A stretch of 64,000 bases of DNA. Origin: an uncultured Candidatus Rokubacteria bacterium. GTDB lineage: Bacteria > Methylomirabilota > Methylomirabilia > Rokubacteriales > DASRDR01. The notes beneath the pieces were generated by a model, which was not told the DNA's origin, ran no database searches, and saw nothing but the letters and a program-made list of their open reading frames with translations. The stretch is taken from contig CAWGVS010000010.1 of NCBI GenBank assembly GCA_963826115.1, positions 96,001-160,000 on the forward strand, in the 5' to 3' direction. How positions within the stretch are numbered: position 1 is the stretch's first letter; each line of letters starts with the position of its first letter. The position numbers were made by a program, and so were the translations under genes. Positions 3,812-41,145 of the stretch are shown here, one piece after another.

Positions 3812-3827
3812 TGCAAGCGGTGTGCCC
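3812..3827 (-). promoter_or_regulatory. sigma-54 promoter of gvp operon
   Basis: GGGCACACCGCTTGCA (GG-N10-GC). Confidence 0.75.
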
Positions 3828-4052
3828 CGAGTTCGCGCGGCGCGCTCGACGAGCTGCGCGCGAGCGGCCTCGAGAGGTGCGAGCCCGAGGTGCGAGCGCG
3901 TGAGCTCGACGGACCGGCCTTCGAAGTCCAAGTTTGACGGGCGTTGCGCGGGGTTCCCCGCGCAACGCCCAGGCCGCGGAGCGCTTGGAGGGCTGCGCCC
4001 CGAAGGGGGTCACCGCGGGCTCCCGTCGGCGCGGCGAGCGTCTCCGCCATGG

Positions 4053-4084
4053 CGACAGGATGTCGCCGAGACGACGCACTGTCG
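4053..4084. promoter_or_regulatory. tandem palindromic enhancer (bEBP UAS) pair
   Basis: CGACAGGATGTCG (4053) and CGACGCACTGTCG (4072), 19 bp apart. Confidence 0.75.
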
Positions 4085-4122
4085 TCCTCCGCGCCTTACC
4101 GTCCGATCTGAGGGCCTCGCCC

Positions 4123-5667
4123 TTACCGATCCGGAGGCGGATGCTTGATGAAGCTTCCGGTGAACGCCACGGAGTTCGGGAAGACGAGGGTCCGGCCGGT
4201 GGGCCCGAGCGGGTCGCCGGCGAGCTCCTGGAGCCGGGTGCGCACGAGCCCGATCTCGATCACCTCGCCGTGGAGGTACCCGAACGGCCCCTGGAGGCTG
4301 ACCCGGTCCCCGATGCGGATCCCGTTCGGCGCCACCATCGAGAAGTAGCCCGCCACGGCGAGGATCACGTTCTGGAGCGCGAAGGCGATCCCGGCGGCGG
4401 CGAATCCGAGCGCGGCAACGAGCGCCGTCAGCTCGCTCGCGAAGTGGAACACGAGCACCAGGGCGACCGCGGTCACGACGACGACGTGGCGCGCGGTCAG
4501 GACGAGCCGCCGATGGTAGCCGTTCTTGATGTAGCGGACGGCGGCGATCCGCCAGATCACCGAGCCCACCAGGATCCCGCCCAGCGCGATCGCGACGCCC
4601 ACCAGCTCGATGCCGAAGCCGCGGAGCACGTGTCCGATCTCGCGGTCGAGAGCATGCGCCCAGGCTTCCAGGTCGGCCGCGTAGCGCTGCAGGACCACGT
4701 ACTCCTCGCGGAGCGGCAGCACGACGGCCCCGGTCAGCTTGACGCGCCCGAGCAGGTCACGGAACTCCTGCTGTCCGGTGTCCAGCGCGATCCCGTCCGC
4801 GGCGGGGTCCTTGGCCAGCTGGCGGAGGCGCGTGACCATCGGGCGCACCGACTGCTGCGTCGTCCGGATGTCGGCGCCGACGGCCCGGGTCAGCTCGGCC
4901 GTCTGGCGCGTCAGCTCCTTGAGGGCGCCTCGGCTGCGTTGAAGGGCCAGGAGCCGGTACACGAGCATCCGGGGCCCGGCCGGCGGCATCCCTCGCCCCG
5001 CGGTCGTGACGACGGTCGACGGGCCAGCCGCCGGGGCGATCCCCGGCACGCTGTCCTGGAGCGCCTGGATGTCGTCCGTCAGGTCGGCGTCGTCTCCGGG
5101 GAGCGACGCGTCCACCTGGACGAGCTTGGTGACGAACTCGAGCTGGACCCGCCCGAACTCGAGCCGGTTGCTCGCGGCGGCGAGCTCCCGCTCGAGCCCC
5201 GGCCGTGTCGCGGGGGGCGCCGTGCGAAGGCGCGCCCGGAGGCGGGCGACCTCCTCCTCGTCGCGCGCGATGGCTGCCCGGATCTGGGCCTGCCGGTCCG
5301 CGCGGGCGCGCTGGCGGGACGTGGCGGCGCCGTTGGTCGAGCCGTCCTCCGTGACGATCTTGGCCTGCGCCCGCGCGGCGTCGAACGCCCGCAGGACCAC
5401 CCGCTGCGCCGTCTGCTGCTCGCCCCGGTCGAGGTCGGAGTCGAGCACGCCCCGGACGGACTGCATCGCGACGCGAGCGCCCTGGTACCAGGCGAGCGTC
5501 CGCTGGAGCGAGGCCTTGACGTCCTCCGTCGTCACCTCCGCCGCGGCTGTGGGGGCCGGCGGGTCGGCGCGGAGCGGGCGCCCGAGCACGCCCGTCTCCA
5601 GGAGCGCCAAGGTGGTGAGCGCGAGGCCGAGCGCGCGCGCCGAGCGACGTCGCGGAGTCGTGGTCAC
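4123..5667 (-). CDS. MscS-family mechanosensitive channel with long periplasmic coiled-coil N-terminus
   Basis: LGFAAAGIAFALQNVILAVAGYF...IRIGDRV...GEVIEIGLVRTRL...FPNS; signal-like N-terminus; start GTG 5667 inferred from the promoter position. Confidence 0.85.
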   Translation of the reverse strand: MTTTPRRRSARALGLALTTLALLETGVLGRPLRADPPAPTAAAEVTTEDVKASLQRTLAWYQGARVAMQSVRGVLDSDLDRGEQQTAQRVVLRAFDAARAQAKIVTEDGSTNGAATSRQRARADRQAQIRAAIARDEEEVARLRARLRTAPPATRPGLERELAAASNRLEFGRVQLEFVTKLVQVDASLPGDDADLTDDIQALQDSVPGIAPAAGPSTVVTTAGRGMPPAGPRMLVYRLLALQRSRGALKELTRQTAELTRAVGADIRTTQQSVRPMVTRLRQLAKDPAADGIALDTGQQEFRDLLGRVKLTGAVVLPLREEYVVLQRYAADLEAWAHALDREIGHVLRGFGIELVGVAIALGGILVGSVIWRIAAVRYIKNGYHRRLVLTARHVVVVTAVALVLVFHFASELTALVAALGFAAAGIAFALQNVILAVAGYFSMVAPNGIRIGDRVSLQGPFGYLHGEVIEIGLVRTRLQELAGDPLGPTGRTLVFPNSVAFTGSFIKHPPPDR

Positions 5668-5680
5668 GCGAGACTTCGGG

Positions 5681-5696
5681 TGCAAGGCGATTGCCA
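5681..5696 (-). promoter_or_regulatory. sigma-54 promoter of mscS-like gene
   Basis: TGGCAATCGCCTTGCA. Confidence 0.75.
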
Positions 5697-5719
5697 CGAC
5701 GTCTGGCGCGGACCACGTG

Positions 5720-5751
5720 AGAACGCTTGTCGCTCGCGCGACACCGTGTCG
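5720..5751. promoter_or_regulatory. tandem UAS pair between divergent promoters
   Basis: AGAACGCTTGTCG (5720) and perfect CGACACCGTGTCG (5739). Confidence 0.65.
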
Positions 5752-5782
5752 GGCCGCGCTACCGAGACGGTCCGCGCCGCCG

Positions 5783-5798
5783 GGGCATGCGGCTTGCT
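5783..5798 (+). promoter_or_regulatory. sigma-54 promoter of pafA
   Basis: GGGCATGCGGCTTGCT. Confidence 0.75.
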
Positions 5799-5812
5799 TC
5801 GTCGAGCTCGGG

Positions 5813-7165
5813 ATGAAGCGCCGCATCTTCGGCCTGGAGAACGAGTATGGCGTGACCTGCACGGCGGGCGGCCAGATGCTCCTCAGCGCCGACGTGCTCG
5901 CCCGCTACCTGTTCGAGGAGCTCCTCCCGTTCGCCATCACGCCGAACGTGTTCCAGGAGAACGGGGCGCGACTGTACGTCGACACCGGGTTCCATCCCGA
6001 GTACGCGACGCCCGAATGCGACGACCTGCTCGACCTGGTGGCGTACGACCGCGCGGGGGAGCGGATCCTTCAGGACCTGGTGCGGCGCGCGCAGCGGGCG
6101 CTGCCCGAGCGCGGGGTCCGCGGCCGCATCCAGGTGTTCAAGAACAACACGGACTCCGCCGGGAACTCCTACGGGTGCCACGAGAACTACCTCGTCTCGC
6201 GAGACACGCCCTTCGCGGCACTGGTGGAAGCGCTCATTCCGTTTCTCGTGAGCCGCCAGATCTTCGCGGGCGCCGGCAAGGTCTACCGGGGGCCGAACGG
6301 CGCCGAGTACCACCTGAGCCAGCGCGCCCAGCACATCGCGGACGAGCTGTCCGGGTCCACGGTCTCCGGGCGACCGATCATCAACACGCGCGACGAGCCG
6401 CACGCGGACGCTCAGCGCTTCCGTCGGCTGCACGTGATCGTCGGCGACTCGAACATGTCGGAGGTGGCCACCTACCTGAAGGTCGGCACGACCGCGCTCG
6501 TGCTGGACATGATCGAGGACGGGTTCCTGGAGTGTGATCTCCGGCTGGAGTCCCCCGTCGCAGCCCTGCGGGCGATCTCCGGCGATCCCACGCTGCGTGG
6601 GCGAGTGCGCCTTCGGGACGGCCGGGCCCTCAGCGCGTTGGAGCTCCAGCTGACCTATCTCGAGGCGAGCCAGGCGTACGTCCGGCGCGCGGGGTCGGAC
6701 CCGCGCGCGGAGGCGGTCCTCACGCGGTGGGCGGACGTGCTCGCGCGACTCGGCCGCGACCCGATGAGCGCGCACGGCCAGGTGGACTGGGTGGCCAAGA
6801 AGCGCCTCATCGACCGCTACCGGGAGAAGCACGGCTGCGCGCCGGAGGACCCCCGCCTGGCCTTGCTCGACCTCCAGTATCACGACGTCGACGAGGACCG
6901 CAGCCTCCACTATCTCCTCGCCCGCCGGAACGAGATCGAGCGGCTGGTCGCGGACGACCGCGTCGAGCGCGCGAAGCGCCGTCCTCCGCAGACGACGCGG
7001 GCGCGCCTCCGCGGCGACTTCATCCGCCGCGCCAACCTCCGGGGGTGGGAGTACCAGGTGGACTGGGCCTACGTGCGGACGATCGTCGGGGCGGACAGCC
7101 ACACGGTCGTCTGCCAGGATCCCTTCGTGGCCCACGACGAGCGCGTGGAGCGGCTGGTCGCCTGA
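5813..7165 (+). CDS. pafA: Pup--protein ligase PafA
   Basis: MKRRIFGLENEYG, NGARLYVDTGFHPEYATPEC, KNNTDSAGNSYGCHENYL (PafA-type; Dop has GKG here), RPIINTRDEPHAD, RRLHVIVGDSNMSE, PPQTTRARLRG, DPF. Confidence 0.92.
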   Translation: MKRRIFGLENEYGVTCTAGGQMLLSADVLARYLFEELLPFAITPNVFQENGARLYVDTGFHPEYATPECDDLLDLVAYDRAGERILQDLVRRAQRALPERGVRGRIQVFKNNTDSAGNSYGCHENYLVSRDTPFAALVEALIPFLVSRQIFAGAGKVYRGPNGAEYHLSQRAQHIADELSGSTVSGRPIINTRDEPHADAQRFRRLHVIVGDSNMSEVATYLKVGTTALVLDMIEDGFLECDLRLESPVAALRAISGDPTLRGRVRLRDGRALSALELQLTYLEASQAYVRRAGSDPRAEAVLTRWADVLARLGRDPMSAHGQVDWVAKKRLIDRYREKHGCAPEDPRLALLDLQYHDVDEDRSLHYLLARRNEIERLVADDRVERAKRRPPQTTRARLRGDFIRRANLRGWEYQVDWAYVRTIVGADSHTVVCQDPFVAHDERVERLVA

Positions 7166-7181: not shown

Positions 7182-7349
7182 TCAGTTCGGGCAGTTCACG
7201 ACCGCCCACACCGCCGGCTCACCGTCGGGCCAGGTCAGGACCGGGCAGACGACGACCTGCACGTTCTGGAGGCGCTCCACCAGCGCCCCGCCGGCGAAGA
7301 TCTGCTCCATCATCACGCTGATCAGGGTGGCCAGGTCCCGCTGATCCAT
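7182..7349 (-). CDS. 55-aa hypothetical small protein (absent from ORF track)
   Basis: GGAG RBS 7 nt before ATG; MDQRDLATLISVMMEQIFAGGALVERLQNVQVVVCPVLTWPDGEPAVWAVVNCPN; strong GC3 codon bias. Confidence 0.7.
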   Translation of the reverse strand: MDQRDLATLISVMMEQIFAGGALVERLQNVQVVVCPVLTWPDGEPAVWAVVNCPN

Positions 7350-7395
7350 GCGTCATCTCCTCGTCTCGGGCGCGACCCCCCGGCCCCGCGCACCG

Positions 7396-7427
7396 AGACA
7401 CGGCGTCGCCGGGGCGCCAGCGTGGCG
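7396..7427. promoter_or_regulatory. tandem UAS pair
   Basis: AGACACGGCGTCG (7396) and CGCCAGCGTGGCG (7415). Confidence 0.6.
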
Positions 7428-7445
7428 TGCGCGGCTGACGGCCGC

Positions 7446-8186
7446 TCAGGCGTCGCCGCGCCACGCGCGACCGCGCTCATAGCCCGCGCGGAACGCGGAC
7501 TCCTCTGACGCCGGCCCGTGACGATCGCGGAGCCGCGCGCGCGCCTCGTCGTACGGTGTCGCCTCCGCGCCGAGGCGCGCGGCGGCGTCGAATCCCTGGC
7601 GGTAGAGTGGCTCGTCCTTCTGAAAGTTGCCGCCCTGACGCGTGTACTCGACCTCCTCGGCGTTGCGGAGGCCGATCCACCACTCGTCTCGCGCGGCGTC
7701 CACGCTCTCGGCCCCGCACGACCGGAGGAGCTCGCGCACGCGGGCGGCCTCGGCCTCGTGGTCGGTCGTCACGACCACGAGGCTGCGCCCCTTGCGGAGC
7801 GCGTCCCGGTAGACGTAGAGCTCGTCGGTCGGGAGCCCCTTGGACAGGGCCTCGTCGAGCTTCGATCCGACCGCGCCACCGGTCATCGCGCCGACGAGCC
7901 CGAGGACGACCGCACCGGCCAGGAGGACGGGGCCGACGCCCGGCAGCACCAGCGACGCGGCCGCGAGGCCACCGGCGGTGCCGGCGGCGCCGCCGACCAC
8001 ACCGCCGATCGTCCCGCCGATGCCCGGCGCCTCGGCGTCGGTCGTCGGCACCGCGCGGACCGCGCGCTCCGGCTCCGCGGGCGCGAGCAGGCTCACGTGA
8101 CGGTCGGGGATTCCGATCTGGCGAAGGGCCTCGACGATGCGCTGCGCGTCCGACTGCCGGGATACCACGCCGACGACCGCCTGCAT
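7446..8186 (-). CDS. general stress protein (17M/YflT-like with glycine-zipper membrane segment)
   Basis: MQAVVGVVSRQSDAQRIVEALRQIGIP...GGVVGGAAG...LPGVGPVLLAG...GLPTDELYVYRDALRKGRSLVVV; GAGGAGGAG RBS. Confidence 0.75.
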   Translation of the reverse strand: MQAVVGVVSRQSDAQRIVEALRQIGIPDRHVSLLAPAEPERAVRAVPTTDAEAPGIGGTIGGVVGGAAGTAGGLAAASLVLPGVGPVLLAGAVVLGLVGAMTGGAVGSKLDEALSKGLPTDELYVYRDALRKGRSLVVVTTDHEAEAARVRELLRSCGAESVDAARDEWWIGLRNAEEVEYTRQGGNFQKDEPLYRQGFDAAARLGAEATPYDEARARLRDRHGPASEESAFRAGYERGRAWRGDA

Positions 8187-8230: not shown

Positions 8231-8246
8231 AGCAAGAGGGGTGCCA
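8231..8246 (-). promoter_or_regulatory. sigma-54 promoter
   Basis: TGGCACCCCTCTTGCT. Confidence 0.85.
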
Positions 8247-8280
8247 CCGGCCGGCATCGGGGTTGCACCGTGTGTGAGGC

Positions 8281-8721
8281 GTGAGACGCGCGCAGCTGGG
8301 CCGTCGGAGTGCGGGCGGTGCGGGCGTGCGGTGGCGGGCCGGGCGGGCCCGGGGCGACCGCGAGTGGCGCCGCGCCGTGCGGCCGGCGTCGTCGCCCCTC
8401 CGGGACGTCCGGCTCGTCCGGAGCGTCATCGGGCTCCTGGCGCTCTTGCTGGGGGCCTACTGTCTGCTCGCGGCCGCGACGGCGCTCTACGCCGACACGG
8501 CGTCCGGCCACCCGAATCCGGCGGAGCTGGCGGCCCGCGAGCGCTACCGGTGGCCCGGGTGGATCCCGATCGGGTTCCTCGCCCTCGTCGTGATCTACGT
8601 GGGGGCCGTCGCCGCGCGGCGGGTTGCCGGGCGGCCACGGCCCGGGCCGCCCTCCACCCAGGACCCCCCGCCGGTCACGCCGTCCGGGCGCGCCCGGCCC
8701 CGCGACCCCGCGTCGCGCTGA
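8281..8721 (+). CDS. hypothetical two-TM membrane protein (true start probably further downstream)
   Basis: Two hydrophobic segments, VIGLLALLLGAYCLLAAATAL and WIPIGFLALVVIYVGAVAA. Confidence 0.5.
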   Translation: MRRAQLGRRSAGGAGVRWRAGRARGDREWRRAVRPASSPLRDVRLVRSVIGLLALLLGAYCLLAAATALYADTASGHPNPAELAARERYRWPGWIPIGFLALVVIYVGAVAARRVAGRPRPGPPSTQDPPPVTPSGRARPRDPASR

Positions 8722-8748: not shown

Positions 8749-9276
8749 TCAGGCGCGGTCCGCGGCCGCGAGACCCGAGCGCCTCCGCAGCAGCACCAGC
8801 GCGACGACGAAGGCGAGGACCATGACCGTGAGGAGCCCGAGCTCCAGCATGGCGTGGAGGAACACCGTGCCGCCCTCCTGGGCGAGCTTGGCGAACTCCG
8901 CGGTGACCACGAGGATCCGCCGCGTCGCCGCGATGAGACCGACGATGAGGAATGGCTCGGGCACGAGCGTGTGCTCCCGGAAGGAGACCTGCACCGTGTA
9001 GAGGAGCTCCACGAGCATCACCACGAGCAGGACCCGGTCGAGGAGGTCGATGATCGGGCCCGGCATCGCGCCGCCGAGCAGCTGGCGTCCGAACGCCACC
9101 GTCCCGTCGACGAGGAGCGCCAGGGCGCCGGCGGCGAGCAGGAGCCCGAGCCCGACGTAGACGACGTCCTCGACGCGCGTGAAGCTCTGGGCGATCCGCT
9201 CGCGCACGGCCGGCGGGATGCCGCCGGGCGCCGGCGCGCCGGCGGCGACCCGCGGGCTCTTGTCGTGTGTCGCCAC
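8749..9276 (-). CDS. phosphate-starvation-inducible PsiE family membrane protein
   Basis: LLDRVLLVVMLVELLYTVQVSFREHTLVPEPFLIVGLIAATRRILV. Confidence 0.8.
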   Translation of the reverse strand: MATHDKSPRVAAGAPAPGGIPPAVRERIAQSFTRVEDVVYVGLGLLLAAGALALLVDGTVAFGRQLLGGAMPGPIIDLLDRVLLVVMLVELLYTVQVSFREHTLVPEPFLIVGLIAATRRILVVTAEFAKLAQEGGTVFLHAMLELGLLTVMVLAFVVALVLLRRRSGLAAADRA

Positions 9277-9293
9277 CGGGGAGAGCGCCGACG

Positions 9294-9983
9294 TCAGGGG
9301 AGCTGTTTCAACGCCTGGATGCGGTCGTTCGTTCCGGGATGCGTTGCGAACCAGCCGCCCCCATTACCGCCACCCTCGGAGGCGGCGAGCCAGGTCAGGG
9401 TGCTCACCATCGCCTCCTTCGACGATCCGACGCGCCGGAGCAGCGTCACCCCATGCTTGTCGGCCTCGAGCTCCTCCGAGCGGCTGTACTTGCGCGTGAT
9501 CAGGGTGCCCGCGATGGGGGTGATGATCGCCGCGTTGGGGATGACCTGCTCGATGATCGCCGAGCCGAGCGCGACTCCGGTCTGAAGCCGTTGCGCCTTC
9601 GCGACGTGCCCGAGATCGTTGTGCGCCATCTCGTGCGCCATCACCGCGCGTAGCTGCTCGTCGTTCGCGCGATCGAGCAGGCCGCGCGTCACGTAGAACT
9701 CGCCGTTCCCGGCGTTGGCGGCGTTGATGCTCTTGTCCGCCATGATGCCGACCGTGAGCTGCTTGGGCGGGTGGTCGGCGACCCGCGCGAGCGGCTCGAT
9801 GATCCCGCGGAGCCGTGCGGCGTCCTGGGCGCTGACCTTCTCCAGGGCGGGGCCGGAATCTGCGGCCCGGCCGCCGGACTGGCCCGCGCCGTCGGAGACG
9901 GGACCCGTGGCGCAGCCGGCGACCAGCAGGGCCGCGAGCGCGAGGCCGGCGTGTCTCGTGCGGATGGTCGACGTTGAGCGCAT
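9294..9983 (-). CDS. M48 family zinc metallopeptidase lipoprotein
   Basis: Lipobox LVAGC; INAA, VMAHEMAH (HExxH), YSRSEELEAD, FATHP; AGGAG RBS. Confidence 0.9.
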   Translation of the reverse strand: MRSTSTIRTRHAGLALAALLVAGCATGPVSDGAGQSGGRAADSGPALEKVSAQDAARLRGIIEPLARVADHPPKQLTVGIMADKSINAANAGNGEFYVTRGLLDRANDEQLRAVMAHEMAHNDLGHVAKAQRLQTGVALGSAIIEQVIPNAAIITPIAGTLITRKYSRSEELEADKHGVTLLRRVGSSKEAMVSTLTWLAASEGGGNGGGWFATHPGTNDRIQALKQLP

Positions 9984-10047
9984 GGGCGTCATCTCCTGGT
10001 GTTCGCGGGACGGGCCACGGGTGTCCCGGTTGTTTGACCAGGAAATG

Positions 10048-10063
10048 AGCAAGGCACATGCCA
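10048..10063 (-). promoter_or_regulatory. sigma-54 promoter of M48-psiE
   Basis: TGGCATGTGCCTTGCT. Confidence 0.85.
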
Positions 10064-10129: not shown

Positions 10130-10161
10130 CGCCAGCGCGTCGCGCGCTCGACACCGTGTCG
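10130..10161. promoter_or_regulatory. tandem UAS pair
   Basis: CGCCAGCGCGTCG (10130) and CGACACCGTGTCG (10149). Confidence 0.75.
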
Positions 10162-10388: not shown

Positions 10389-10775
10389 TCACGAGCGACC
10401 GGTGGACCGCCGGGAGGATCGCGCGCGTGTGGCCCCGGAGGCCCCGGCGGCGCGCCGGCCGTTTCCCGTCGGAGCGTCCGGCTCGAGCGCCGTGATGGGG
10501 CGCTCCGTGAACAGGAACGCGCGTAGCACCTCGTCGAAGCTCGGGTCTCGCCGCCGGATCCACTCCAGCACCATTGCCGCGTGCTCCTTCTCCTCGTCCC
10601 GGTTGTGCCGGAGGATGGCCTTCAGCTCGCCGTCGGCGGCCGCCTCGATGCGCTGCTGGTACCAGTCGATCGCCTCGAGCTCCTCCATCAGGCTGACGAT
10701 CGCCCGGTGCATGTCGCGCGTGCCGGGCGTGAGCGCCTCCTCGGCCTCGTGAAACCCCGCGGAGCCTCCTGCCAT
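10389..10775 (-). CDS. encapsulin-associated-type ferritin-like protein (EncFtn family)
   Basis: HRAIVSLMEELEAIDWYQQR...ILRHNRDEEKEHAAMVLEWIRR...FLFTERPIT; AGGAG RBS. Confidence 0.9.
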   Translation of the reverse strand: MAGGSAGFHEAEEALTPGTRDMHRAIVSLMEELEAIDWYQQRIEAAADGELKAILRHNRDEEKEHAAMVLEWIRRRDPSFDEVLRAFLFTERPITALEPDAPTGNGRRAAGASGATRARSSRRSTGRS

Positions 10776-10819
10776 GTCGGGTCTCCTGTCTCGCGGGCGC
10801 GGGCCCGCGGCGTCATCGG

Positions 10820-32340: not shown

Positions 32341-32356
32341 TGGCATGCCACTCGCA
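32341..32356 (+). promoter_or_regulatory. sigma-54 promoter
   Basis: TGGCATGCCACTCGCA. Confidence 0.7.
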
Positions 32357-32416: not shown

Positions 32417-32803
32417 ATGACACGCACGCTGCTCGGCGTCACGTTCGCGATCGGCCTCGTGGCGAGCCTGCCCGGCCCGACCCACGCCGGCGGCGCCCTG
32501 ATCGAGACCACGGCCCCGCTCGCGGATCGCTCCGAAGAGTCCGTCAAGGCGGCGGTCGTCGCGGCGATCGACAAGGCGATGCGCGGCGCCGCGGCCATGG
32601 GCTTCGCGTGGGTCCAGCTCCGCGACGCGCAGGTGTCGGAGGGTGAGGTGGCGATCCAGATCCTGGCGACCGACGAGAAGCCAGGAGCCGTGGACGGGGT
32701 CCAGCCGGATCCCGCTCCGGACGCGAGCCCGGGCGACGACGCGCTCTCGGGCGAGACGGACCGGGGGCCGGCGATTCCGGAAGGCGCGCGGCTCCACATC
32801 TGA
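32417..32803 (+). CDS. hypothetical secreted protein
   Basis: Signal peptide ending THA; acidic C-terminus; lies downstream of a sigma-54 promoter. Confidence 0.6.
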   Translation: MTRTLLGVTFAIGLVASLPGPTHAGGALIETTAPLADRSEESVKAAVVAAIDKAMRGAAAMGFAWVQLRDAQVSEGEVAIQILATDEKPGAVDGVQPDPAPDASPGDDALSGETDRGPAIPEGARLHI

Positions 32804-32833: not shown

Positions 32834-34127
<1,294 letters not shown>

Positions 34128-34422
34128 GGGCCGGCGACTCGGCTCGGGCAGGGAGGGGCCGACGGGTCCGACGAGCGCAGGCGAGGCCGCCCGGCGGCGG
34201 TCACGCCGACCGGCCGGCGGTCGCCGCCGTCACGGGCTAGGACCCGAACGGGCCGCATGAAGGCATCGCCGTCCTTCCCTGGCATCCCGATGTCGGGACA
34301 CTAGCACGTCGGGCTGCCGGGAGGCGAGAGGTTGTCGGCGGCAGCCGGTGGGAGCGGGCGTGGGCGTCACGGCGCGCCGCTCGGCCGCGGCGCGGTCGAG
34401 CCCGGGCGCGTCGGCTCCGCGG

Positions 34423-36473
34423 TCAGGACGAGTGCGCGGAGCACCTCGGCCACGCTCCACGCCTGCGCGATGCACCCGCGCGGCGTGAACGGCGCCTCGG
34501 CGTCGAAGATCTCGCTGATACTGCCGACGCACGCCTCGTCGAGGTGCGGCCAGAAGCCGTCGAGCAGGCTGCGGGCCGTCGCCCGGTCCTCGGGGTGGAC
34601 GCGGAGCCAGGCGTCGACGAACGGGCCGATGAGCCAGGCCCAGACCGTGCCCTGGTGGTAGGCCGCGTCGCGCGCTCGGAGGTCGCCGTCATACGTCGCC
34701 TTGTAGTCGGGGTGGCCGGGGGCCAGCGATGCGAAGTCCGACCGGCGTGAGGAGGCGGGTCCGGACCACCGTCAGCACCGGCGGCCACCGCGCCTCGGTC
34801 CAGGACCGGGTGGCGGAGCGAGATGGCGAACAGCTGGTTGGGCCGGCAGGCCGCATCGTCGCCTGCTCGCCGTCGACCACGTCGTAGAGGTAGCCGCCGT
34901 CGGCGTACCAGAAGCGGCGGTTGAACGACGCGCGCGCGTTCGGCGGCCCGGGCCGCCAACGCCGCCGCGGGCTCGTCGCCCTCTTCCTCCCGGAGCCACC
35001 CCTCGAGGAGCCGGAGGGCGTTGTACCAGAGCGCGTTGATCTCGACCGCCTTGCCGCGCCGCGGCGTCACCACCCAGTCGTCGACCTTGGCGTCCATCCA
35101 GGTGAGCTGGTAGCCGTCCGCGCCCTGGCGGAGCAGACCGTCCGCCGGGTCGACGCCGATGCCGAACCGCGTGCCGGCGAGGTGGTGGTCCACGATCGCG
35201 ACCAGGGTCGGCAGGAGGAGCGCGGAGCGTGCCGCGGTCCGCCGTCGCCGCGAGGTAGCGGTCGAGGGCGTGGAAGTACCAGAGGCGTCGCGTCGGCCGT
35301 GTGGTAGAGCCCGTCCCGCGCGCCTTCCGGGAACATGTTGGGGATCAGGCCGTCGCGCACGTAGTGGGCGAACGTGCGCAGGATGTAGCCGGCCTCGACG
35401 TGGCGGCCCGTGAGCAGGGTCAGGCCCTCGAGGCTGATCATCGTGTCGCGTCCCCAGTCGGTGAACCAGTGGTAGCCGGCGATGATCGTGCCGCGCCTCG
35501 TCGCCGGTCGCCGCGCGCGAGCGCGGCGTCCGCCACGCGCCCCGCCGGCGTGATGACGAACTGGTCGGCGGCCAGCACGAGCTCCGCGGCCGGCCCGGTC
35601 CGGGCGAGCGGATGCGCGGCCGCGAGCAGGCGCCGTCGCCGCACGCGCTCGGCGCGCTCGGCGGTCTCGGGATCGAGCGCGTCGCATGGCCTCCCACGAC
35701 TCGGTCGAGGCGACGAGGGTGCTCGCTTCGCTCCGGCTCGAGCGTCACGCGGAAGTACCCGGGGCTCCAGAGGTCACCGGTCGCCTCGTAGCCGCGACTC
35801 TCCTCCACCGGGTACAGGACCTGCTGGATCGTGTGCCCCGACACGCGGAAGGCGGCGGCCGGGCCGTGCATGCGGAACCGGAGCGCGCGGGAGCTCCGGC
35901 GTCGCGAAGAGCTCGTAGCGATCGCCCACGACCGTGAGCCGCGTAGGGCCCGGCCAGGGGATCGCTCACGGGCCGCTCGTGCGGGCGGAAGTGGACCGCC
36001 GGCCGCACGTGGAGATCGAACGGGGCCGGCGCCGGCGATGCAGCCGGTAGCTCACGTGGACGGTGTTCTGGCGGTAGGGCAGCAGCAGGCGCTTCTCGAG
36101 GGCGACCGCGGCCGAGCTCGTACCGCCAGACCGGCAGCCCGCTCTCCAGGCGGAACTCCGCGAGGTCCAGGAGCTCGCGCCGGCTTCGCCGCTCGCCGTC
36201 GACCTCCCGCCCGTCGCGGGAGCGGCGACGCCGGCGTCCGCCAGGTCGAGTCGCTCGTGCAGGTGGCTCAGCATGATCATCCGGCCGAGCGGCGCCGGGA
36301 GCGCGGCGATCAGCAGCCCGTGGTAGCGGCGCGTCATGCGCGCCGGACACCGTTCCCGACGCGTAGCCGCCGAGCCCGTTGGTCACCAGCCACTCGCGCG
36401 TGCGCCGCGCCGCCGGGTCTCGGCGGACGTCACGTGCGGGCCAGGCGGATGCGGCGCGACCAGCTCGGCTCAT
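34423..36473 (-). CDS. amylo-alpha-1,6-glucosidase (glycogen debranching enzyme family), multiply frameshifted
   Basis: Fragments EWLVTNGLGGYASGT, TRRYHGLL, IIAGYHWFTDWGRDTMISLEGL, GLIPNMFP, QLTWMDAK, PRRGKAVEINALWYNAL, RPNQLFA. Confidence 0.8.
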
Positions 36474-38389
36474 CCCACACGCCGTCGAAGCACCAGCGCC
36501 GCGCTGGCCCGGGAGGCCCCACGCACGCCGTCGGGATCCACCGCCGGCGTCCCGAGCCGCCGTAGCGGATCGCTTCGCTCGACCAGCGGAGCTGCCAACG
36601 CGCCCCGGCCGGCGGTGCGAGCAGCGGCTCGGCGACCGAGGGCAGCGTGAGGTCACGGCCGAGGTTGACGCAGCAGCAGGCGGTCGCCCGCCTCGGCGCG
36701 TTCCCCGAAGAAGCGCAGCACGAACGCCTCCGGTCCGAGCACGGCGCCGTCGACCCCGCTTCGCCGCTGCGCGCGGAAGACCGGGTCCTCCCGGCGCAGG
36801 CGGAGCAGGTCGCGGTGGAGCGCATAGGCGGCGGCGTGTCGCTCGCGCTCCGCGAAGTCGAGCTTGCAGCGCTCGAACGTCGCCGGTCGCGCCGGGTCGG
36901 GGACCGCCGCCTGCGCCTCGGCGCCGCGCGAGGCTCGGGAACTGGCGCGAGGAACTGGCGCGCGCCCCGCCCGGACCCGCTTCGCCAGCTCGGGCTCGTG
37001 GTCGGCGAAGTAGAGGAACGGGCTGGACGCGGCGAACTCCTGCCCCTGGAACAGCATCGGCGTGCCCGGCGCCGAGCAGCAGCAGCGCCGTCATCGCGCG
37101 GTAGCGCCCGGGGCTGGTCAGCGCGGTCGCCGCGGAGCCCGCCGGGCGGAGTTGGCGACCTGGTCGTGGTTCTGCGATGAAGTGCACGAAGCGACGCGGG
37201 CGCGAGGTCCGAGCGCCGGCGTGCCGCGCCGCTTGCCTCTGCCACGCGTAGCGCTGCCCCTGGTAGAGGTAGCCGCGCTTGACCGCCGAGATGAGCTCCT
37301 GCGGCGTGCCCGCGGTAGTCGCGTGTAGTAGGCCTCGGCGCGGCCGGTCAGCGCGACGATCGCGCGCGTGGTGGAAGTCGTCGTTCCACAGCGCGTCGAG
37401 GCCGTAGCCGCCGCTGCTCGGCGGGCGCGACGAGGCGCGCGTCCTGCGGCTCGTTCTCGGCGACGACGAAGATCGCGCGGCCGCCGGCCGCCGGCCCGCG
37501 CCTGGCGCGCGATCGCGGCCAGGATGTGCTCGCGGCGAGCGCGTCGAAGATCGTCCTGCGTCGCGTCGAGCCGCAGGCCGTCGAGGTGGAACTCGTCGAT
37601 CCAGTAGCCGGCGTTGGCGACGAAGAACTCGCGCACCGGCCCGGCGCCCGCGCCGTCGAAGTTGATCGCCTCGCCCCACTCGGTGCGCGTGACGCGTCGG
37701 TGAAGTAGGCCGGCGCAGAACTGCGCCAGGTAGTTGCCGTCGGGCCCGAGGTGGTTGTAGACGACGTCGAGGATCACGCCGAGGCCGAGCGCGTGGGCGC
37801 GGTCGACGAAGCGCGCGGAAGTCGTCGGGCCGGCCGTAGAGGCGCGTCGGCGCGAACAGATCGACGCCGTCGTAGCCCCAGCCGAAGTCGCCCGGGGAAC
37901 TCGGCGACCGGCATGACCTCGAGCACGGTGATGCCCGAGCGTCGGCCAGCTCCGGCAGCTCGCGGCGCGGCCGCGTCCCAGGTGCCCTCCGCGCGTGAAC
38001 GTGCCGACGTGCATCTCGTAGACGACCTGGCCCTCGCGCCGGACGCCCGGCCAGCGCGCCGTCGGTCCACGCGAAGGCGCCCGGGTCGACGACCTGCGAC
38101 GGGCCGTGCGGCCCCTCCGGCTGGAAGCGCGACGCGGGATCGGGCAGCGGCCCGGCCCGCCGTCGAGCCGGTACGCGTAGGTCGCTCCCGCCCGGACGCC
38201 GGCGACGAGACCGGCGTGGTACCCGTCGGGCTCCGTGGCGAGGGCGACGTGGCGATCGTGGAGCTCGACCTCCACGCTCGTGGCCGCCGGCGCCCACACG
38301 CGGAAATGCGCGCCGCTGCCGTCGGGGACGAGCTCCGCGCCGACCGGCAGGCGGCGCCATGCGGGGGGCGAGGGGGGGCGCGTTCGCAC
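36470..38389 (-). CDS. treZ: malto-oligosyltrehalose trehalohydrolase, multiply frameshifted
   Basis: HFRVWAP, PDPASRFQPEGPHGPSQVVDP, YEMHVGTF, WGYDGV, DVVYNHLGPDGNYL, DEFHLDGLRLDATQ, WNDDFHH, QNHDQVAN, MLFQGQEF. Confidence 0.82.
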
Positions 38390-38402
38390 AGCGGGACCTC
38401 GG

Positions 38403-38418
38403 GGCAACTTCTATACCA
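38403..38418 (-). promoter_or_regulatory. sigma-54 promoter of treZ operon
   Basis: TGGTATAGAAGTTGCC. Confidence 0.75.
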
Positions 38419-38493: not shown

Positions 38494-38525
38494 CGCCACC
38501 GTGTCGCCGCGACGACACCGTGACG
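38494..38525. promoter_or_regulatory. tandem UAS pair between divergent promoters
   Basis: CGCCACCGTGTCG (38494) and CGACACCGTGACG (38513). Confidence 0.82.
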
Positions 38526-38628: not shown

Positions 38629-38644
38629 TGGCACCCGGCTTGCT
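38629..38644 (+). promoter_or_regulatory. sigma-54 promoter
   Basis: TGGCACCCGGCTTGCT. Confidence 0.88.
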
Positions 38645-38699: not shown

Positions 38700-39383
38700 A
38701 TGACGACTGAGTTCCGTACCCTCATCACCGTGGCGGCGCTGGCGGCCCTCGTCGGCACGGCCGATGCCGGTTCGGCGCCCGCGCCGAAGACCGTGGCGGC
38801 GACGTCGGCCAAGGCGACGGAGCCCATCAAGGACACGAAGCGGTTCGCCGAGAACGCCGGCCTCTCGCGGGCGAGCTCGGTGATCGGAAGCAGCGTGAAG
38901 GATCTGTCCGGCAAGGACGCCGGAAAGGTCGAAGACCTCCTGCTCGACTACCGCGGACACGTCGGCTACGCCGTGGTGTCGTTCGGCGGGTTCCTGGGCA
39001 TCGGCGACAAGCTGTACGCGGTGCCGTGGGACGCCGTGATCGTGGATCAAGAGAAGCGGACGGTCTACCTCGACGTGAAGAAGGAAGCACTCGAGCACGC
39101 CCCGAGCTTCTCGTCCGACAAGTGGCCCGAGCAGAACGATCGCACGTGGGGCCAGGCAGTCAAGAAGGCCTGGAGCGATGCCTCGATCACCGCTTCGGTC
39201 AAGACGAAGCTGGCGGGCACGGCGCCCGCCACGCTCCTGAAGGTCGACGTCGACACGACCAACGGGATCGTGCAGCTGAACGGCACGGTCGACAGCGACA
39301 AGACGCGCCAGCGCGCGACCGAGCTGGCCCGTCAGGTCGACGGGGTGCGCCGCGTGGTGAACAACCTCAGGGTGCAGAGCTAG
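38700..39383 (+). CDS. secreted PRC-barrel + BON domain protein
   Basis: RASSVIGSSV...GKVEDLLLD...YAVVSFGGFLGIGDKLYAVPW, then a BON domain (DASITASVKTKL...VDGVRRVVNNL); GGGAGG RBS. Confidence 0.88.
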   Translation: MTTEFRTLITVAALAALVGTADAGSAPAPKTVAATSAKATEPIKDTKRFAENAGLSRASSVIGSSVKDLSGKDAGKVEDLLLDYRGHVGYAVVSFGGFLGIGDKLYAVPWDAVIVDQEKRTVYLDVKKEALEHAPSFSSDKWPEQNDRTWGQAVKKAWSDASITASVKTKLAGTAPATLLKVDVDTTNGIVQLNGTVDSDKTRQRATELARQVDGVRRVVNNLRVQS

Positions 39384-39496
39384 CGCTCGCATCTCGAGGG
39401 GGCTCGTCTCGCGGCCTCGCGGAGCCCGGGAGCGCCGGCTTGGCGCCGCCCGGGCTCCGTCCGTCGACCGCATCACCGAACCGCAAGGAGGGTCTC

Positions 39497-40144
39497 GTGG
39501 CGAAGAACGCCGGTTCCAGCGCGCCGAAAGCCTACCGCCCGCGTGAGTTCGATCTCGCGGGACTTGCAGGCATCTCCGACGCCCAGATCGAGGAGCACCT
39601 CGCGCTCTACGCGGGATACGTGAAGCAGGTGAACGCCTTGAACCAGGGGCTGGCCGAGCTGCGCGGTCGCGGCCAGGCGTCGAGCAAGAGCCCGGAGTTC
39701 GCCGAGCTCACGCGCCGGCTCGGCTTCGAGTACAACGGCATGATCCTGCACGAGTACTACTTCGGCAACCTGCGCGCCGCCGCGGACCCTGCGCCGCCAG
39801 GGCGGTCGGGCCTGTCGGAGGCGCTCGCCGGCTCGTTCGGGTCCGTCGAGCACTGGCGGACGGACTTCCAGGCGATCGGCGGGATGCGAGGGGTTGGCTG
39901 GGCGGTCCTCTTCCAGGATCCGGTCACCGAGCGCCTGACCAATCACTGGATCTCGCTGCACCAGGACGGCGTGCCCGCGGGATTCAAGCCGCTCCTGGTG
40001 ATGGACGTCTGGGAGCACGCGTACATGCGCGACTACAAGGCGACCGAGCGCGACCGGTACATCGAGGCGTTCTTCCGGAACATCGACTGGTCCGCGGTCG
40101 AGACGCGGCTCCAGGACGAGCGCGCCGTCCGGCCCGCGGCCTGA
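39497..40144 (+). CDS. Fe/Mn superoxide dismutase family protein
   Basis: EEHLALYAGYV, LHEYYF, GWAVL, PLLVMDVWEHAY...YIEAFFRNIDW; AAGGAGG RBS. Confidence 0.88.
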   Translation: MAKNAGSSAPKAYRPREFDLAGLAGISDAQIEEHLALYAGYVKQVNALNQGLAELRGRGQASSKSPEFAELTRRLGFEYNGMILHEYYFGNLRAAADPAPPGRSGLSEALAGSFGSVEHWRTDFQAIGGMRGVGWAVLFQDPVTERLTNHWISLHQDGVPAGFKPLLVMDVWEHAYMRDYKATERDRYIEAFFRNIDWSAVETRLQDERAVRPAA

Positions 40145-40169: not shown

Positions 40170-40201
40170 CGTCACGCTGTCGTCGCGACGACACCGTGGC
40201 G
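40170..40201. promoter_or_regulatory. tandem UAS pair
   Basis: CGTCACGCTGTCG (40170) and CGACACCGTGGCG (40189). Confidence 0.8.
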
Positions 40202-40265
40202 AGGACGACCGAGAGGAACACCCGGCCTGGCGGGCGTTTCAGCGTCACGGGCCACGGGATCGACC

Positions 40266-40281
40266 CGGCACGCGACTTGCC
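40266..40281 (+). promoter_or_regulatory. sigma-54 promoter
   Basis: CGGCACGCGACTTGCC. Confidence 0.8.
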
Positions 40282-40355
40282 CTGACTAACGTCGGGGGCC
40301 GCGTGACGCGGCCGCAGCTAGAAACGGGCCGCGATCGCGCGGCGCGGAGGGCAGC

Positions 40356-40544
40356 ATGCGAGGCGCACGGGGCTGGATCGGAATCGCACTGGGGCTCGGC
40401 GTGCTTCTCGCCTGATGCGACCAGGGCCCGGCCCAGAAGGCGGGCGAGAAGATCGACCGGGCTCTCGACCGGCTGAGTGGCAAGGGGCCGCTCGAGAAGG
40501 CCGGCGAGCGGATCGACAAGGCGGTCGAGGAGCTCAAGAAGTAA
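40356..40544 (+). pseudogene. small stress lipoprotein with an in-frame TGA inside its lipobox
   Basis: GGAGG RBS; MRGARGWIGIALGLGVLLA*CDQGPAQKAGEKIDRALDRLSGKGPLEKAGERIDKAVEELKK; TGA at 40413-40415 where the Gly of LAGC is expected. Confidence 0.7.
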
Positions 40545-40619
40545 GGCGGCCGGGCCGGGCGCGCGTCCGGGACACAGCGGACCCGGGCAACGAGCGAACC
40601 GGCGAAGGAGGACATGACG

Positions 40620-40790
40620 ATGCTGTCGATGGCCCTGACGTTCCTGATCGTGGGGCTCGTGGCCGGGCTCCTCGGGCTCTACGGCGTCGCCGCCGTGGCG
40701 ACGCAGATCGCGTGGGTGCTGTTCCTGGTGGGCGTGGTGCTGCTCGTGGTGCACGTGGCCCGGGCGCGACGGCTCCCGCCTGTTGTGTGA
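40620..40790 (+). CDS. DUF1328 (YtjA-like) small membrane protein
   Basis: AAGGAGG RBS; MLSMALTFLIVGLVAGLLGLYGVAAVATQIAWVLFLVGVVLLVVH. Confidence 0.85.
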   Translation: MLSMALTFLIVGLVAGLLGLYGVAAVATQIAWVLFLVGVVLLVVHVARARRLPPVV

Positions 40791-40804
40791 AGGGGGAACG
40801 AACC

Positions 40805-40888
40805 ATGGGCGCTCTGCGGAGCCTGATCACGGCGATCGGCATCTGGCTCGCGTTCGTCCTGGTGTTCACCTCGATCGTCGGCGCCTAG
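40805..40888 (+). CDS. 27-aa single-TM peptide
   Basis: AGGGGGA RBS; MGALRSLITAIGIWLAFVLVFTSIVGA. Confidence 0.55.
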   Translation: MGALRSLITAIGIWLAFVLVFTSIVGA

Positions 40889-40996
40889 GGGCGTGTCAGC
40901 GCCCAGGCGCGCGGTGAGCCGGCGCACCGAGTCGCCGGCGGCAACGCGCGGCCACCCCGCGGTGACCGCGATTCACGCAGTCGAGGAGGTGACGAC

Positions 40997-41086
40997 GTGG
41001 CTCATCAGTACCGCTGTGAGAAGTGCGGACACGTGTCGGACCGGCCGGGCAGCTGCTGCGGTCAGCCGATGAAGGAAATCTCCTAG
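40997..41086 (+). CDS. 29-aa desulforedoxin-like metal-binding peptide
   Basis: GAGGAGG RBS, GTG start; AHQYRCEKCGHVSDRPGSCCGQPMKEIS (CxxC...CCG-x-PM); followed by a terminator. Confidence 0.75.
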   Translation: MAHQYRCEKCGHVSDRPGSCCGQPMKEIS

Positions 41087-41106
41087 CCCACTCGCGGGCC
41101 TACTCG

Positions 41107-41145
41107 GGGAGCGGGACGGCGAGAGCCGCCCCGCTCTCTCTTTTT
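41107..41145 (+). terminator. Rho-independent terminator
   Basis: GGGAGCGGGACGGC-GAGA-GCCGCCCCGCTCTC hairpin followed by TCTTTTT. Confidence 0.75.

Follow-up and report, generated by a model that had tools for sequence, protein, structure and literature searches.

We analyzed a 64,000-bp stretch of DNA (the window) from contig CAWGVS010000010.1 of an uncultured Candidatus Rokubacteria bacterium, whose phylum is abundant in soil and has never been cultured. The region from 3.8 to 41 kb of this window is likely to be one clustered σ54 regulon of stress-protection genes in Methylomirabilota (Rokubacteria), operating by the mechanism proposed below. Approximately 41 genes in 20 units follow predicted −24/−12 promoters, most of these promoters are preceded by a paired palindrome (the dyad), and one two-component activator encoded within the cluster probably turns on all of the genes together. 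What was computed directly comprises the promoters and dyads with their arrangement, the domains of the regulators and the families of the genes. The cluster takes up 37,415 bp of the window, 5,045 bp of which are intergenic, and its left edge may lie beyond window position 1.

Promoters and dyads of the cluster

Because the whole window has a G+C content of 64–75%, open reading frames (ORFs) occur in all six frames; genes were called by a codon-bias model that had the window as its training set and were checked against Pfam and NCBIfam. In such G+C-rich DNA the element GG-N10-GC alone is nearly meaningless, so the extended σ54 consensus (TGGCAC-N5-TTGCW) was tested, with expectations taken from dinucleotide-preserving shuffles of the window. 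An original prediction, made from the sequence without database searches, had listed 19 GG-N10-GC positions, and all 19 were present within 1 nt. Its description of them as mostly TGGCA-N6-TTGC was slightly overstated, since this form is found at seven of the 19, while GGCA-N6-TTGC is found at 14. The other five are weaker variants: 16966–16980 (TGGAA..TTGC), 27726–27740 and 32341–32355 (both ..TCGC), 29928–29942 (CGGCAT..TCGC) and 38404–38418 (TGGTA..TTGC). With GG and GC 10 nt apart in the extended consensus, the promoters match the σ54 (−24/−12) class by sequence.

The strict form GGCA-N6-TTGC occurs 16 times in the window, against 1.13 expected (100 shuffles, maximum 5, none reaching 16), and TGGCA-N6-TTGC seven times, against 0.13 expected (100 shuffles, maximum 2). 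Allowing up to one mismatch, TGGCAC-N5-TTGC is found 14 times against 2.21 expected, one of these matches, at 19625, lying within the activator gene. The density in shuffled DNA, a comparison that the original prediction had itself named, is thus far below that observed. All 16 strict matches lie between 3.8 and 40.3 kb, for which the chance by position is ~2e-4 by our own arithmetic, and 15 of them are intergenic. Consistent with the earlier statement that the elements cease beyond 41.2 kb, no strict match was found at 41–64 kb or anywhere else in the 26.6 kb of the window outside the cluster. The companion statement, that σ70-like boxes appear in their place at 41.2–64 kb, found no support beyond chance: a consensus scan gave one match outside the cluster against 0.5 expected and none inside against 0.4 expected, and intergenic TTGAC(A/G) occurs twice outside and once inside. 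As a background of natural DNA we used 80 loci surrounding other activator genes (1,212,398 bp, or 1.21 Mb), which contain 90 strict matches, none of the loci having more than four; this amounts to 0.074 per kb, compared with 0.43 per kb here.

Two of the strict matches were absent from the earlier list or stand apart from the others. The site at 8252–8266 (+) is an additional promoter, back to back with that at 8232–8246 (−), whereas the match at 16633 (+) is antisense and inside a gene, and is probably a chance match, since about one strict match is expected at random. In co-directional spacers the site aims at the downstream gene in seven of seven cases, which bears out the orientation that had been claimed, and the remaining 13 promoters lie in divergent spacers. 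When the 260 bp upstream of the sites were aligned, the flanks proved mutually unrelated. A position weight matrix (PWM) trained on 15 of the sites, and hence circular for those, was used to rank other sites only; its best match outside the cluster, at 60933, scores 9.2 bits and lies in a coding region. The 20 promoters predicted from the sequence are listed here with the genes that follow them, the position of the start codon relative to the GC and that of any Shine–Dalgarno (SD) sequence.

3813–3827 (−): promoter GGGCACACCGCTTGC; orf68, GvpA/J-like, GvpA; SD and ATG 54 nt past GC; dyad 242 bp upstream
5682–5696 (−): promoter TGGCAATCGCCTTGC; gene for 488-amino-acid (aa) MscS-like protein; dyad 40 bp upstream, common to the 5783 promoter
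5783–5797 (+): promoter GGGCATGCGGCTTGC; PafA; ATG 15 nt past GC, near-leaderless
8232–8246 (−): promoter TGGCACCCCTCTTGC; 246-aa YflT-like gene; SD GAGGAGG, ATG 45 nt past GC; no dyad within 300 bp
8252–8266 (+): promoter CGGCATCGGGGTTGC; 131-aa membrane protein; no dyad nearby
10049–10063 (−): promoter TGGCATGTGCCTTGC; M48 lipoprotein protease and PsiE; dyad 84 bp upstream
16966–16980 (−): weaker promoter TGGAATCGCGGTTGC; nucleotidyltransferase-GlgX-TreY-EncFtn operon; ATG 13 nt past GC; dyad 129 bp upstream
17442–17456 (−): promoter TGGCACGTGCCTTGC; 80-aa Cys-rich ORF; SD GAAGGAGG, ATG 29 nt past GC; dyad 93 bp upstream
20440–20454 (+): promoter TGGCACGGGCCTTGC; single-domain response regulator, NTP_transf_5, metallophosphoesterase; ATG 13 nt past GC; no dyad within 300 bp
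24054–24068 (−): promoter CGGCACAGAGCTTGC; orf82, PCC-domain protein, 155-aa ORF; dyad 83 bp upstream
26013–26027 (−): promoter TGGCACATGACTTGC; DUF883-like, Holin-X/YqjE-like, 137-aa ORF, DksA/TraR; shared dyad 103 bp upstream
26211–26225 (+): promoter AGGCACATGCCTTGC; 93-aa hydrophilic ORF; dyad common to the 26013 promoter, 84 bp upstream
27540–27554 (−): promoter AGGCAGCCTTGTTGC; CsbD, BON, DUF3309; shared dyad 129 bp upstream
27726–27740 (+): weaker promoter TGGCACTGCCCTCGC; 62-aa membrane peptide; dyad common to the 27540 promoter, 46 bp upstream
29928–29942 (−): weak promoter CGGCATGCGTTTCGC; AI-2E-family transporter; GTG 14 nt past GC; shared dyad 71 bp upstream
30083–30097 (+): promoter CGGCACAGGGATTGC; 25-aa hydrophobic peptide and 577-aa phosphodiesterase-like protein; dyad common to the 29928 promoter, 73 bp upstream
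32341–32355 (+): weaker promoter TGGCATGCCACTCGC; 128-aa secreted protein; dyad 101 bp upstream
38404–38418 (−): weak promoter TGGTATAGAAGTTGC; TreZ, GDE-type debranching enzyme, response regulator, MBL-fold gene; shared dyad 93 bp upstream
38629–38643 (+): promoter TGGCACCCGGCTTGC; PRC-BON and superoxide dismutase; dyad common to the 38404 promoter, 121 bp upstream
40266–40280 (+): promoter CGGCACGCGACTTGC; small lipoprotein-like ORF and DUF1328; dyad 82 bp upstream

Twelve promoters are followed by an SD-preceded start codon 29–75 nt past the GC; at the 10062 promoter the SD-preceded start is an ATG 65 nt past the GC, and the gene list below uses the ATG at 9992 instead. Starts lacking an SD sequence are found 59 nt past the GC for 8253 (+) and 92 nt for 5695 (−). 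At five of the 20 promoters, 5784 (+), 16979 (−), 20441 (+), 29941 (−) and 38417 (−), an in-frame start lies only 13–15 nt past the GC (5797–5813, 16952–16966, 20454–20468, 29913–29928 and 38389–38404, respectively). Since σ54 transcripts begin approximately 11–13 nt downstream of the GC, these five starts sit where the transcript should begin, which points to leaderless or near-leaderless mRNAs. The distance to the start codon is only a proxy for the mapping of transcription start sites, and it lies in the predicted direction. At 8232–8266 the two back-to-back promoters have a gap of 7 bp from GG to GG and neither has a dyad; because only 5 bp separate the two 15-mers, the upstream region of each is the transcribed region of the other.

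Alignment of the 260 bp upstream of each promoter site also revealed the second common element, a dyad in which a 13-bp palindrome, CGACACnGTGTCG, occurs twice at a distance of exactly 19 bp. With up to two mismatches CGACACnGTGTCG occurs 27 times in the window against 8.9 expected, and the copies are often paired at this distance. The dyad was modeled as two palindromes with a 6-bp spacer, giving 24 specified positions, and a threshold of at least 18/24 was applied. At this threshold the window contains 13 dyads, against a mean of 0.37 in 30 shuffles (maximum 2), and the 1.21 Mb of the 80 background loci contain one. A half-site matrix gave 21.7–35.2 bits for the 13 dyads and no more than 17.0 bits for all other places, and good half-sites were paired 12 times at the 19-bp spacing, compared with 0–2 pairs for each of the other spacings between 13 and 29. 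Conservation is highest in the inner arms, with the core TGTCG-N6-CGACA; exact copies of this core number six in the window, all within dyads, and one in the 1.21 Mb of other loci. A dyad with a 7-nt spacer, found once against 2.86 expected, was rejected as having the wrong spacing. The 13 dyads (given without strand) are as follows.

4053–4084: dyad, 20/24
5720–5751: dyad, 19/24, right half perfect; between divergent promoters
7396–7427: dyad, 19/24
10130–10161: dyad, 21/24
17092–17123: dyad, 21/24
17532–17563: dyad, 19/24; directly upstream of the kinase-activator operon
24134–24165: dyad, 21/24
26113–26144: dyad, 19/24; between divergent promoters
27666–27697: dyad, 18/24; between divergent promoters
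29996–30027: dyad, 20/24; between divergent promoters
32226–32257: dyad, 18/24
38494–38525: dyad, 22/24; between divergent promoters
40170–40201: dyad, 21/24

All 13 dyads lie inside the cluster (chance by position alone ~9e-4, again by our own arithmetic), 12 of them upstream of promoters, and 17 of the 20 promoters have a dyad ~40–243 bp upstream. Five dyads, at 5720, 26113, 27666, 29996 and 38494, are placed between the members of a divergent promoter pair. A dyad within 250 bp upstream is present at each of the five weak promoters, which backs them independently of their own score. The dyads are recurrent inverted repeats upstream of the promoters of the regulon, as upstream activating sequences (UAS) are, and judged from the sequence they resemble an enhancer used by one activator. 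The reading that one activator controls the cluster is considerably stronger because of this element. At 3939–3970, between the 4053 dyad and the gvp promoter, a near-perfect 32-bp hairpin (stem ~15 bp, central AA) follows the MscS-like gene and may serve as a terminator lacking a T tract or as a site where a protein binds.

The regulators and the genes behind the promoters

The original prediction had assigned the elements to one enhancer-binding protein. In agreement with the dyads upstream of 17 of the 20 promoters, genes for a complete NtrC-type activator and its kinase lie midway along the cluster.

17595–19073 (+): sensor histidine kinase (HAMP, HisKA, HATPase)
19070–20437 (+): NtrC-type enhancer-binding protein (REC, AAA+ with GAFTGA, HTH_8)

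The activator contains the domains Response_reg (8.8e-23), Sigma54_activat (PF00158; 1.2e-70), AAA_lid_14 and HTH_8 (2.4e-08), and its translation shows GAFTGA as well as the Walker motifs GDSGSGKE and LLLDE. It thus has the AAA+, receiver and HTH_8 parts and the adjoining kinase of an NtrC-type regulator. Because every score against the NCBIfam equivalogs is below the cutoff (AtoC, 454.9 bits with a cutoff of 714; NtrC, 429.9 and 558.6; ZraR, 408.1 and 760; NifA, 364.7 and 528.85), it corresponds to no named equivalog. It is the sole Sigma54_activat protein among the window ORFs scanned and, from its position, the best candidate for the protein that would bind the dyad. In the N-terminal part of the kinase, two hydrophobic segments, judged by eye, flank a stretch of ~140 aa, and the end of the kinase gene overlaps the start of the activator gene by 4 nt. 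A −10-like TAGACT lies 9 nt before the GTG of the kinase gene, beside the dyad at 17532–17563 (17580–17597), and autoregulation of the operon through this dyad is possible. Taken with the five starts located 13–15 nt past the GC, this GTG suggests that leaderless mRNAs are frequent in the organism, those from σ54 promoters included. No σ, anti-σ, PhyR or Rsb-type domain was found among the window ORFs scanned, so that, within the window, the regulators are not of the SigB/RpoS/EcfG type, in which a σ70-family σ factor is combined with an anti-σ or partner-switching module. A hybrid PAS kinase at 201–2798 (−) is also present in the window, with PAS and REC in one frame and HisKA-HATPase in another.

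In the mechanism that we propose, the membrane kinase (17595–19073) would sense a signal, probably extracytoplasmic, and phosphorylate the receiver domain of the activator (19070–20437). The activator would assemble on the dyad of two CGACACnGTGTCG palindromes upstream of the promoters and use ATP to open σ54 RNA polymerase complexes parked at the ~20 −24/−12 promoters, and the ~41 genes would be induced together. TreY, TreZ, GlgX and the GDE-type enzyme would yield trehalose from glycogen, while CsbD, BON, PRC-BON, DUF1328, DUF3309, the DUF883-like/YqjE-like operon, the small membrane peptides and PsiE would protect the envelope and periplasm. Further products would be a probable mechanosensitive channel, the M48 protease, superoxide dismutase, encapsulated ferritin, GvpA, PafA and a DksA-like factor. 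The single-domain response regulator, which has its own predicted σ54 promoter, may feed back on signaling, and the kinase operon may be autoregulated through the dyad just upstream of it. In this scheme we infer that the activator binds the dyad, that the signal is one of osmotic stress, desiccation or dormancy, that the genes are co-expressed and that feedback takes place. The units behind the promoters, with the basis of their labels (HMM, hidden Markov model), are listed next.

2802–3758 (−): orf68, GvpA/J-like, GvpA (domain search)
4123–5589 (−): 488-aa MscS-like protein (language-model lead only)
5813–7165 (+): PafA-type Pup ligase (Pup_ligase 4e-159; TIGR03686 562.8 bits, cutoff 551.3)
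7182–8186 (−): 246-aa protein (YflT/Gly-zipper, weak lead) and 55-aa ORF
8326–8721 (+): 131-aa membrane protein
8749–9992 (−): M48 lipoprotein protease (LoiP/HtpX-like) and PsiE (HMM)
10389–16952 (−): sugar-1-P nucleotidyltransferase, GlgX, TreY and encapsulated ferritin operon (HMM)
17170–17412 (−): 80-aa Cys-rich ORF
20468–22615 (+): single-domain response regulator, NTP_transf_5 protein, metallophosphoesterase (domain search)
22587–23993 (−): orf82, PCC-domain protein, 155-aa ORF
24242–25970 (−): DUF883-like, Holin-X/YqjE-like, 137-aa ORF, DksA/TraR zinc finger
26287–26568 (+): 93-aa hydrophilic ORF
26648–27469 (−): CsbD, BON, DUF3309 (HMM)
27783–27971 (+): 62-aa membrane peptide
28042–29913 (−): AI-2E-family transporter; C-terminal extension with a weak B12-binding_2 match (6e-05)
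30131–32292 (+): 25-aa hydrophobic peptide and 577-aa phosphodiesterase-family protein
32417–32803 (+): 128-aa secreted protein
32834–38389 (−): TreZ, GDE-type debranching enzyme, REC-domain protein, MBL-fold protein; several frameshifted
38700–40144 (+): PRC-barrel+BON protein and Fe/Mn superoxide dismutase (HMM)
40356–40790 (+): small lipoprotein-like ORF and DUF1328

BON/OsmY, DUF883/ElaB, DUF1328/YtjA, PRC-barrel and trehalose genes are typical of general stress regulons. The families confirmed here by HMM are CsbD, BON (two genes), PRC, DUF1328, PsiE, TreY, TreZ, GlgX, EncFtn and superoxide dismutase, and with these hallmark families the gene content fits that of a general stress regulon. 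Of the hallmark genes named in the original prediction, CsbD, BON, DUF1328, TreY, TreZ, GlgX and EncFtn stood, and the DUF883 and MscS labels were left unconfirmed by HMM. Scores exceeded the cutoffs for GlgX (1067.9 and 640.9 bits), TreY (951 and 498.65) and ferrit_encaps (135.9 and 125). The MscS-like lead has a score of 0.98, MS_channel_2nd being present in 42–83% of the members of its three best clusters. A gas vesicle cluster consists of GvpA and the accessory genes GvpN, F/L, G, J, K and others. The GvpA assignment stood by HMM, but the earlier gvp "cluster" comes down to two GvpA-like genes with a Gas_vesicle domain, 2802–3158 and 3162–3551 (−); none of the accessory families (GvpN, F/L, G, J, K) was found among the window ORFs scanned. 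This is not the composition of a gas vesicle cluster, and the formation of real gas vesicles is doubtful.

Several start codons and individual genes deserve comment. The family profile of PafA aligns from residue 3 onwards, which confirms its start; this enzyme lies here in a non-actinobacterial genome, behind a σ54 promoter, and no Pup, Dop or proteasome genes were noticed among the window ORFs scanned. For PRC-BON, a leaderless start at ATG 38658 was rejected in favor of ATG 38700, which is preferred because it is SD-led, gives an N-terminal signal peptide and equals the stored protein P0243. The first genes of the regulon include tiny hydrophobic peptides, namely 30131–30208 (+) with 25 aa, 27783–27971 (+) with 62 aa and the DUF3309 gene 26648–26800 (−) with 50 aa, which are reminiscent of small stress-induced membrane proteins. 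The lipoprotein-like ORF 40356–40544 (+) has a good SD sequence, and its frame is interrupted by a TGA at 40413, immediately ahead of the Cys in a lipobox-like LLA-x-C; this TGA could be a sequencing error, the mark of a pseudogene or a site of read-through. Searches of the window with Rfam at gathering thresholds and for tRNAs gave no match. Outside the cluster, the G+C content is 64–66% at 58000–64000, compared with 69–75% elsewhere in the window. This segment, which encodes a 1066-aa methyltransferase/GT4/GT2 fusion, a methyltransferase and an acyltransferase_3 gene, is a surface-polysaccharide-type cluster, possibly of different origin.

Conservation in relatives and alternative readings

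The homologues of the activator share 72–94% identity with it in all 120 matches listed; an NCBI organism name is given in 10 of these 120 rows, and all are Methylomirabilota, Candidatus Rokubacteria or Rokuibacteriota. Some database copies carry the label HydG. PRC-BON has 227 relatives at E≤1e-20, with 57–86% identity among the matches listed and full-length identity up to ~80%. By contrast with the activator, which has homologues at 93%, TreZ (37118–38389, −) has no relative above 48% identity and may be a divergent or decaying copy. When relatives of two proteins were matched by their "longest_contig" entries, TreZ and PRC-BON had eight matching entries in addition to the 605,443 of the window itself, with five of the eight at 13–173 kb, and the activator and PRC-BON had three large ones (690,742, 103,447 and 67,068). 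Matches on small contigs can be due to chance, those on large contigs hardly. Parts of the cluster thus seem to remain linked in relatives, a statement that concerns the genes and not the DNA sites.

A number of observations weigh against the reading of the cluster as one regulon under one activator. The activator is tied to the dyad solely by its location and by being the only activator seen, and no rpoN gene was found among the window ORFs scanned. Five promoters deviate at strongly conserved positions, with A or T for the C after GG or with TCGC for TTGC, and the PWM, having been trained on sites that it scores, adds no independent support. No dyad lies within 300 bp of the promoters at 8245 (−), 8253 (+) or 20441 (+). 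Conversely, the dyad at 7396 (19/24, 24.8 bits), between the gene for the 246-aa protein and the 55-aa ORF, has no convincing promoter; the one candidate beside it, a poor GGCC-N6-TCGC ~33 bp off, was not accepted. Characterized enhancers are usually 80–150 bp from the promoter, and at three promoters the center of the dyad is just 40–48 bp from the −24 GG. Among the products, the 488-aa MscS-like protein has no Pfam or NCBIfam match, and the DUF883-like protein, labeled by architecture only, has no HMM match at E≤0.01. Frame changes between 33.2 and 38.4 kb may mean that some members are pseudogenes or that the assembly is poor: fragments of the GDE-type debranching enzyme are spread over three or more frames, and near 37.1 kb the frame of TreZ changes, so that its C-terminal DUF3459 part is read in a different one. 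These breaks are local, since TreY (984 aa) and GlgX (717 aa) nearby are intact. A DctP fragment elsewhere in the window, at 51097–52125 (−), is likewise off-frame. A search of genome contigs with the activator, using generic AAA+ peptide patterns, listed at least 80 loci, all of them paralogues at 39–50% identity, and tblastn of 35 cluster proteins against the 80 paralogue loci gave one weak M48 match. Finally, "general stress" is a label taken over from gene families known in other phyla.

These observations bear on three other explanations. That the motif pattern is a by-product of the 72% G+C or of a repeated intergenic element is very improbable. Bare GG-N10-GC is very common in such DNA, and the strict match at 16633 (+) is of the kind that chance produces, but the shuffles never reach the observed counts and the 23 kb of the same composition at 41–64 kb have no strict match. 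Furthermore, the flanks of the sites are unrelated, and orientation, start-codon distance and dyad pairing are all non-random; as far as statistics go, this explanation is already refuted. It is also conceivable, although we consider it rather unlikely, that the σ54 promoters are real and the dyad is bound by another protein, such as an activator encoded elsewhere, a repressor or the REC-domain protein at 33.2–34.1 kb, with the local pair controlling some units or none. The link between activator and dyad by location only, the three promoters without dyad and the dyad without promoter would all accord with this. In addition, one distinct homologue at 44–45% identity is encoded at each of two loci, L006 (Rokubacteria) and L022 (Methylomirabilota), so that the phylum carries more than one activator of the family. 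On the other hand, the one Sigma54_activat protein among the ORFs scanned is central in the cluster and a dyad lies directly upstream of its own operon; paired palindromes upstream of −24/−12 promoters are, moreover, the standard enhancer layout of HTH_8 activators.

The breadth of the response is a separate matter. The cluster could be a narrowly triggered program, answering through one kinase to an envelope, osmotic or desiccation cue or to entry into dormancy, while a separate σ70-family stress system is encoded elsewhere; we regard this as possible, though not the probable case. Two-component control with a membrane sensor does resemble ZraSR-type or dormancy regulons more than partner-switching cascades, and the gene content is weighted to trehalose, envelope and osmoprotection. 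Against a narrow trigger, the cluster also holds oxidative (superoxide dismutase), iron (EncFtn), proteolytic (M48, PafA) and transcriptional (DksA-like) functions, and the CsbD, BON, PRC and DUF1328 families typify general stress regulons. We retain, as the likely reading, a clustered σ54 regulon under its own two-component activator.

Known systems and implications

The closest likeness in layout is the nif cluster of Klebsiella, which is contiguous, carries a −24/−12 promoter and the same UAS at almost all of its operons and encodes NifA inside. The UAS bound by NifA is TGT-N10-ACA, and the core of the present dyad, TGTCG-N6-CGACA, also reads TGT-N10-ACA. The sensory domain at the N terminus of NifA is of another kind, and NifL controls the protein, whereas the activator described here has a receiver domain and a partner kinase; the nif genes serve nitrogen fixation, whereas ~20 promoters here precede genes of stress protection. 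The architecture is therefore of a known type, the clustered σ54/activator type of nif, and it is the gene content and the scale that are new. ZraSR (HydHG) and PspF are alike in that a sensor kinase and an NtrC-type activator act on σ54 promoters of envelope stress proteins, and a ZraR site can be common to divergent promoters. ZraSR/PspF systems drive one or few operons, compared with ~20 here, and the present activator is below the ZraR, AtoC and NtrC cutoffs. The SigB, RpoS and EcfG systems differ more deeply, being based on σ70-family factors that are freed by partner switching or stabilized against proteolysis and that use −35/−10 promoters, in place of −24/−12 promoters and an ATPase activator. 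Their regulons overlap with the cluster in gene content: in the available part of a study of Sphingopyxis, csbD and mscS are direct targets of the EcfG general stress response (PMC7083833).

Other σ54 systems share single features with the cluster. In the accessible sections of PMC9765219, Nla28 of Myxococcus xanthus is a starvation-responsive enhancer-binding protein that acts directly on many σ54 promoters, with 12 of them supported and 58 more proposed. As here, one such protein serves many σ54 promoters, and the Nla28 program ends in a resistant state; however, Nla28 is associated with tandem 8-bp repeats and most of its new target promoters are intragenic (PMC9765219, same sections), whereas the present dyads are palindromic and the promoters here are intergenic and contained within 37 kb. 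The content of its target genes is also unlike that of the cluster. According to an excerpt of PMC4982088, gvpA1 of Serratia sp. ATCC 39006 has a consensus σ54 site and needs the NtrC-family protein GvrA, so that a gvp structural gene stands behind a σ54 site in both organisms. Here gvpA belongs to one of ~20 units, with two GvpA-like genes and no accessory gvp gene found in the window. In Borrelia, as far as partial accounts of the Rrp2-RpoN-RpoS pathway go, σ54 and one enhancer-binding protein likewise stand atop a global adaptive response, but σ54 acts on essentially one promoter, that of rpoS, and RpoS runs the regulon, whereas here σ54 would act directly on the effector genes. The consulted portion of the survey PMC12316311 predicts σ54 control of MscS channels in Planctomycetia, reports that wherever activators occurred in the data set σ54 was present as well and, in its supplement, lists an rpoN gene for Ca. 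Methylomirabilis.

The original prediction had known of no earlier account of such a system, and our literature search likewise found none: no σ54 regulon with hallmark general-stress families as direct targets was found, nor anything on σ54 in Rokubacteria, and the literature on trehalose or stress in Rokubacteria among the matches listed contained nothing on regulation. Trehalose and gas vesicles are unmentioned in the available part of the broad σ54 survey PMC3162934, where "general stress response" appears only for SigB/RpoS and in references, and the accessible portions of the main text and eight supplementary files of PMC12316311 mention neither trehalose, gas vesicles nor the general stress response.

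There is no agreed biological theme for σ54, and until now σ70-family factors have been credited with general stress responses; to our knowledge, all characterized bacteria use σ70-family stress σ factors (RpoS, SigB, EcfG). Against this background we put forward, tentatively and as a proposal that may well prove too broad, that Rokubacteria have their general stress/desiccation response wired directly to σ54. One two-component activator and one dyad would then replace RpoS, SigB or EcfG, in a fourth architecture with a nif-like cluster and partly leaderless mRNAs. The case is unusually clean and can be read from the sequence, with ~20 promoters and 13 enhancer copies before textbook stress genes. 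If the reading is correct, the pair of cis elements could be used to find the same regulon in other genomes, and the transcripts of the cluster would serve as markers of drought or dormancy of Rokubacteria in soil metatranscriptomes. The kinase, activator, enhancer and promoter would form a compact module, testable in a σ54-containing host without culturing the organism, and the tight off-state and all-or-none activation of σ54 would be usable for a survival program.

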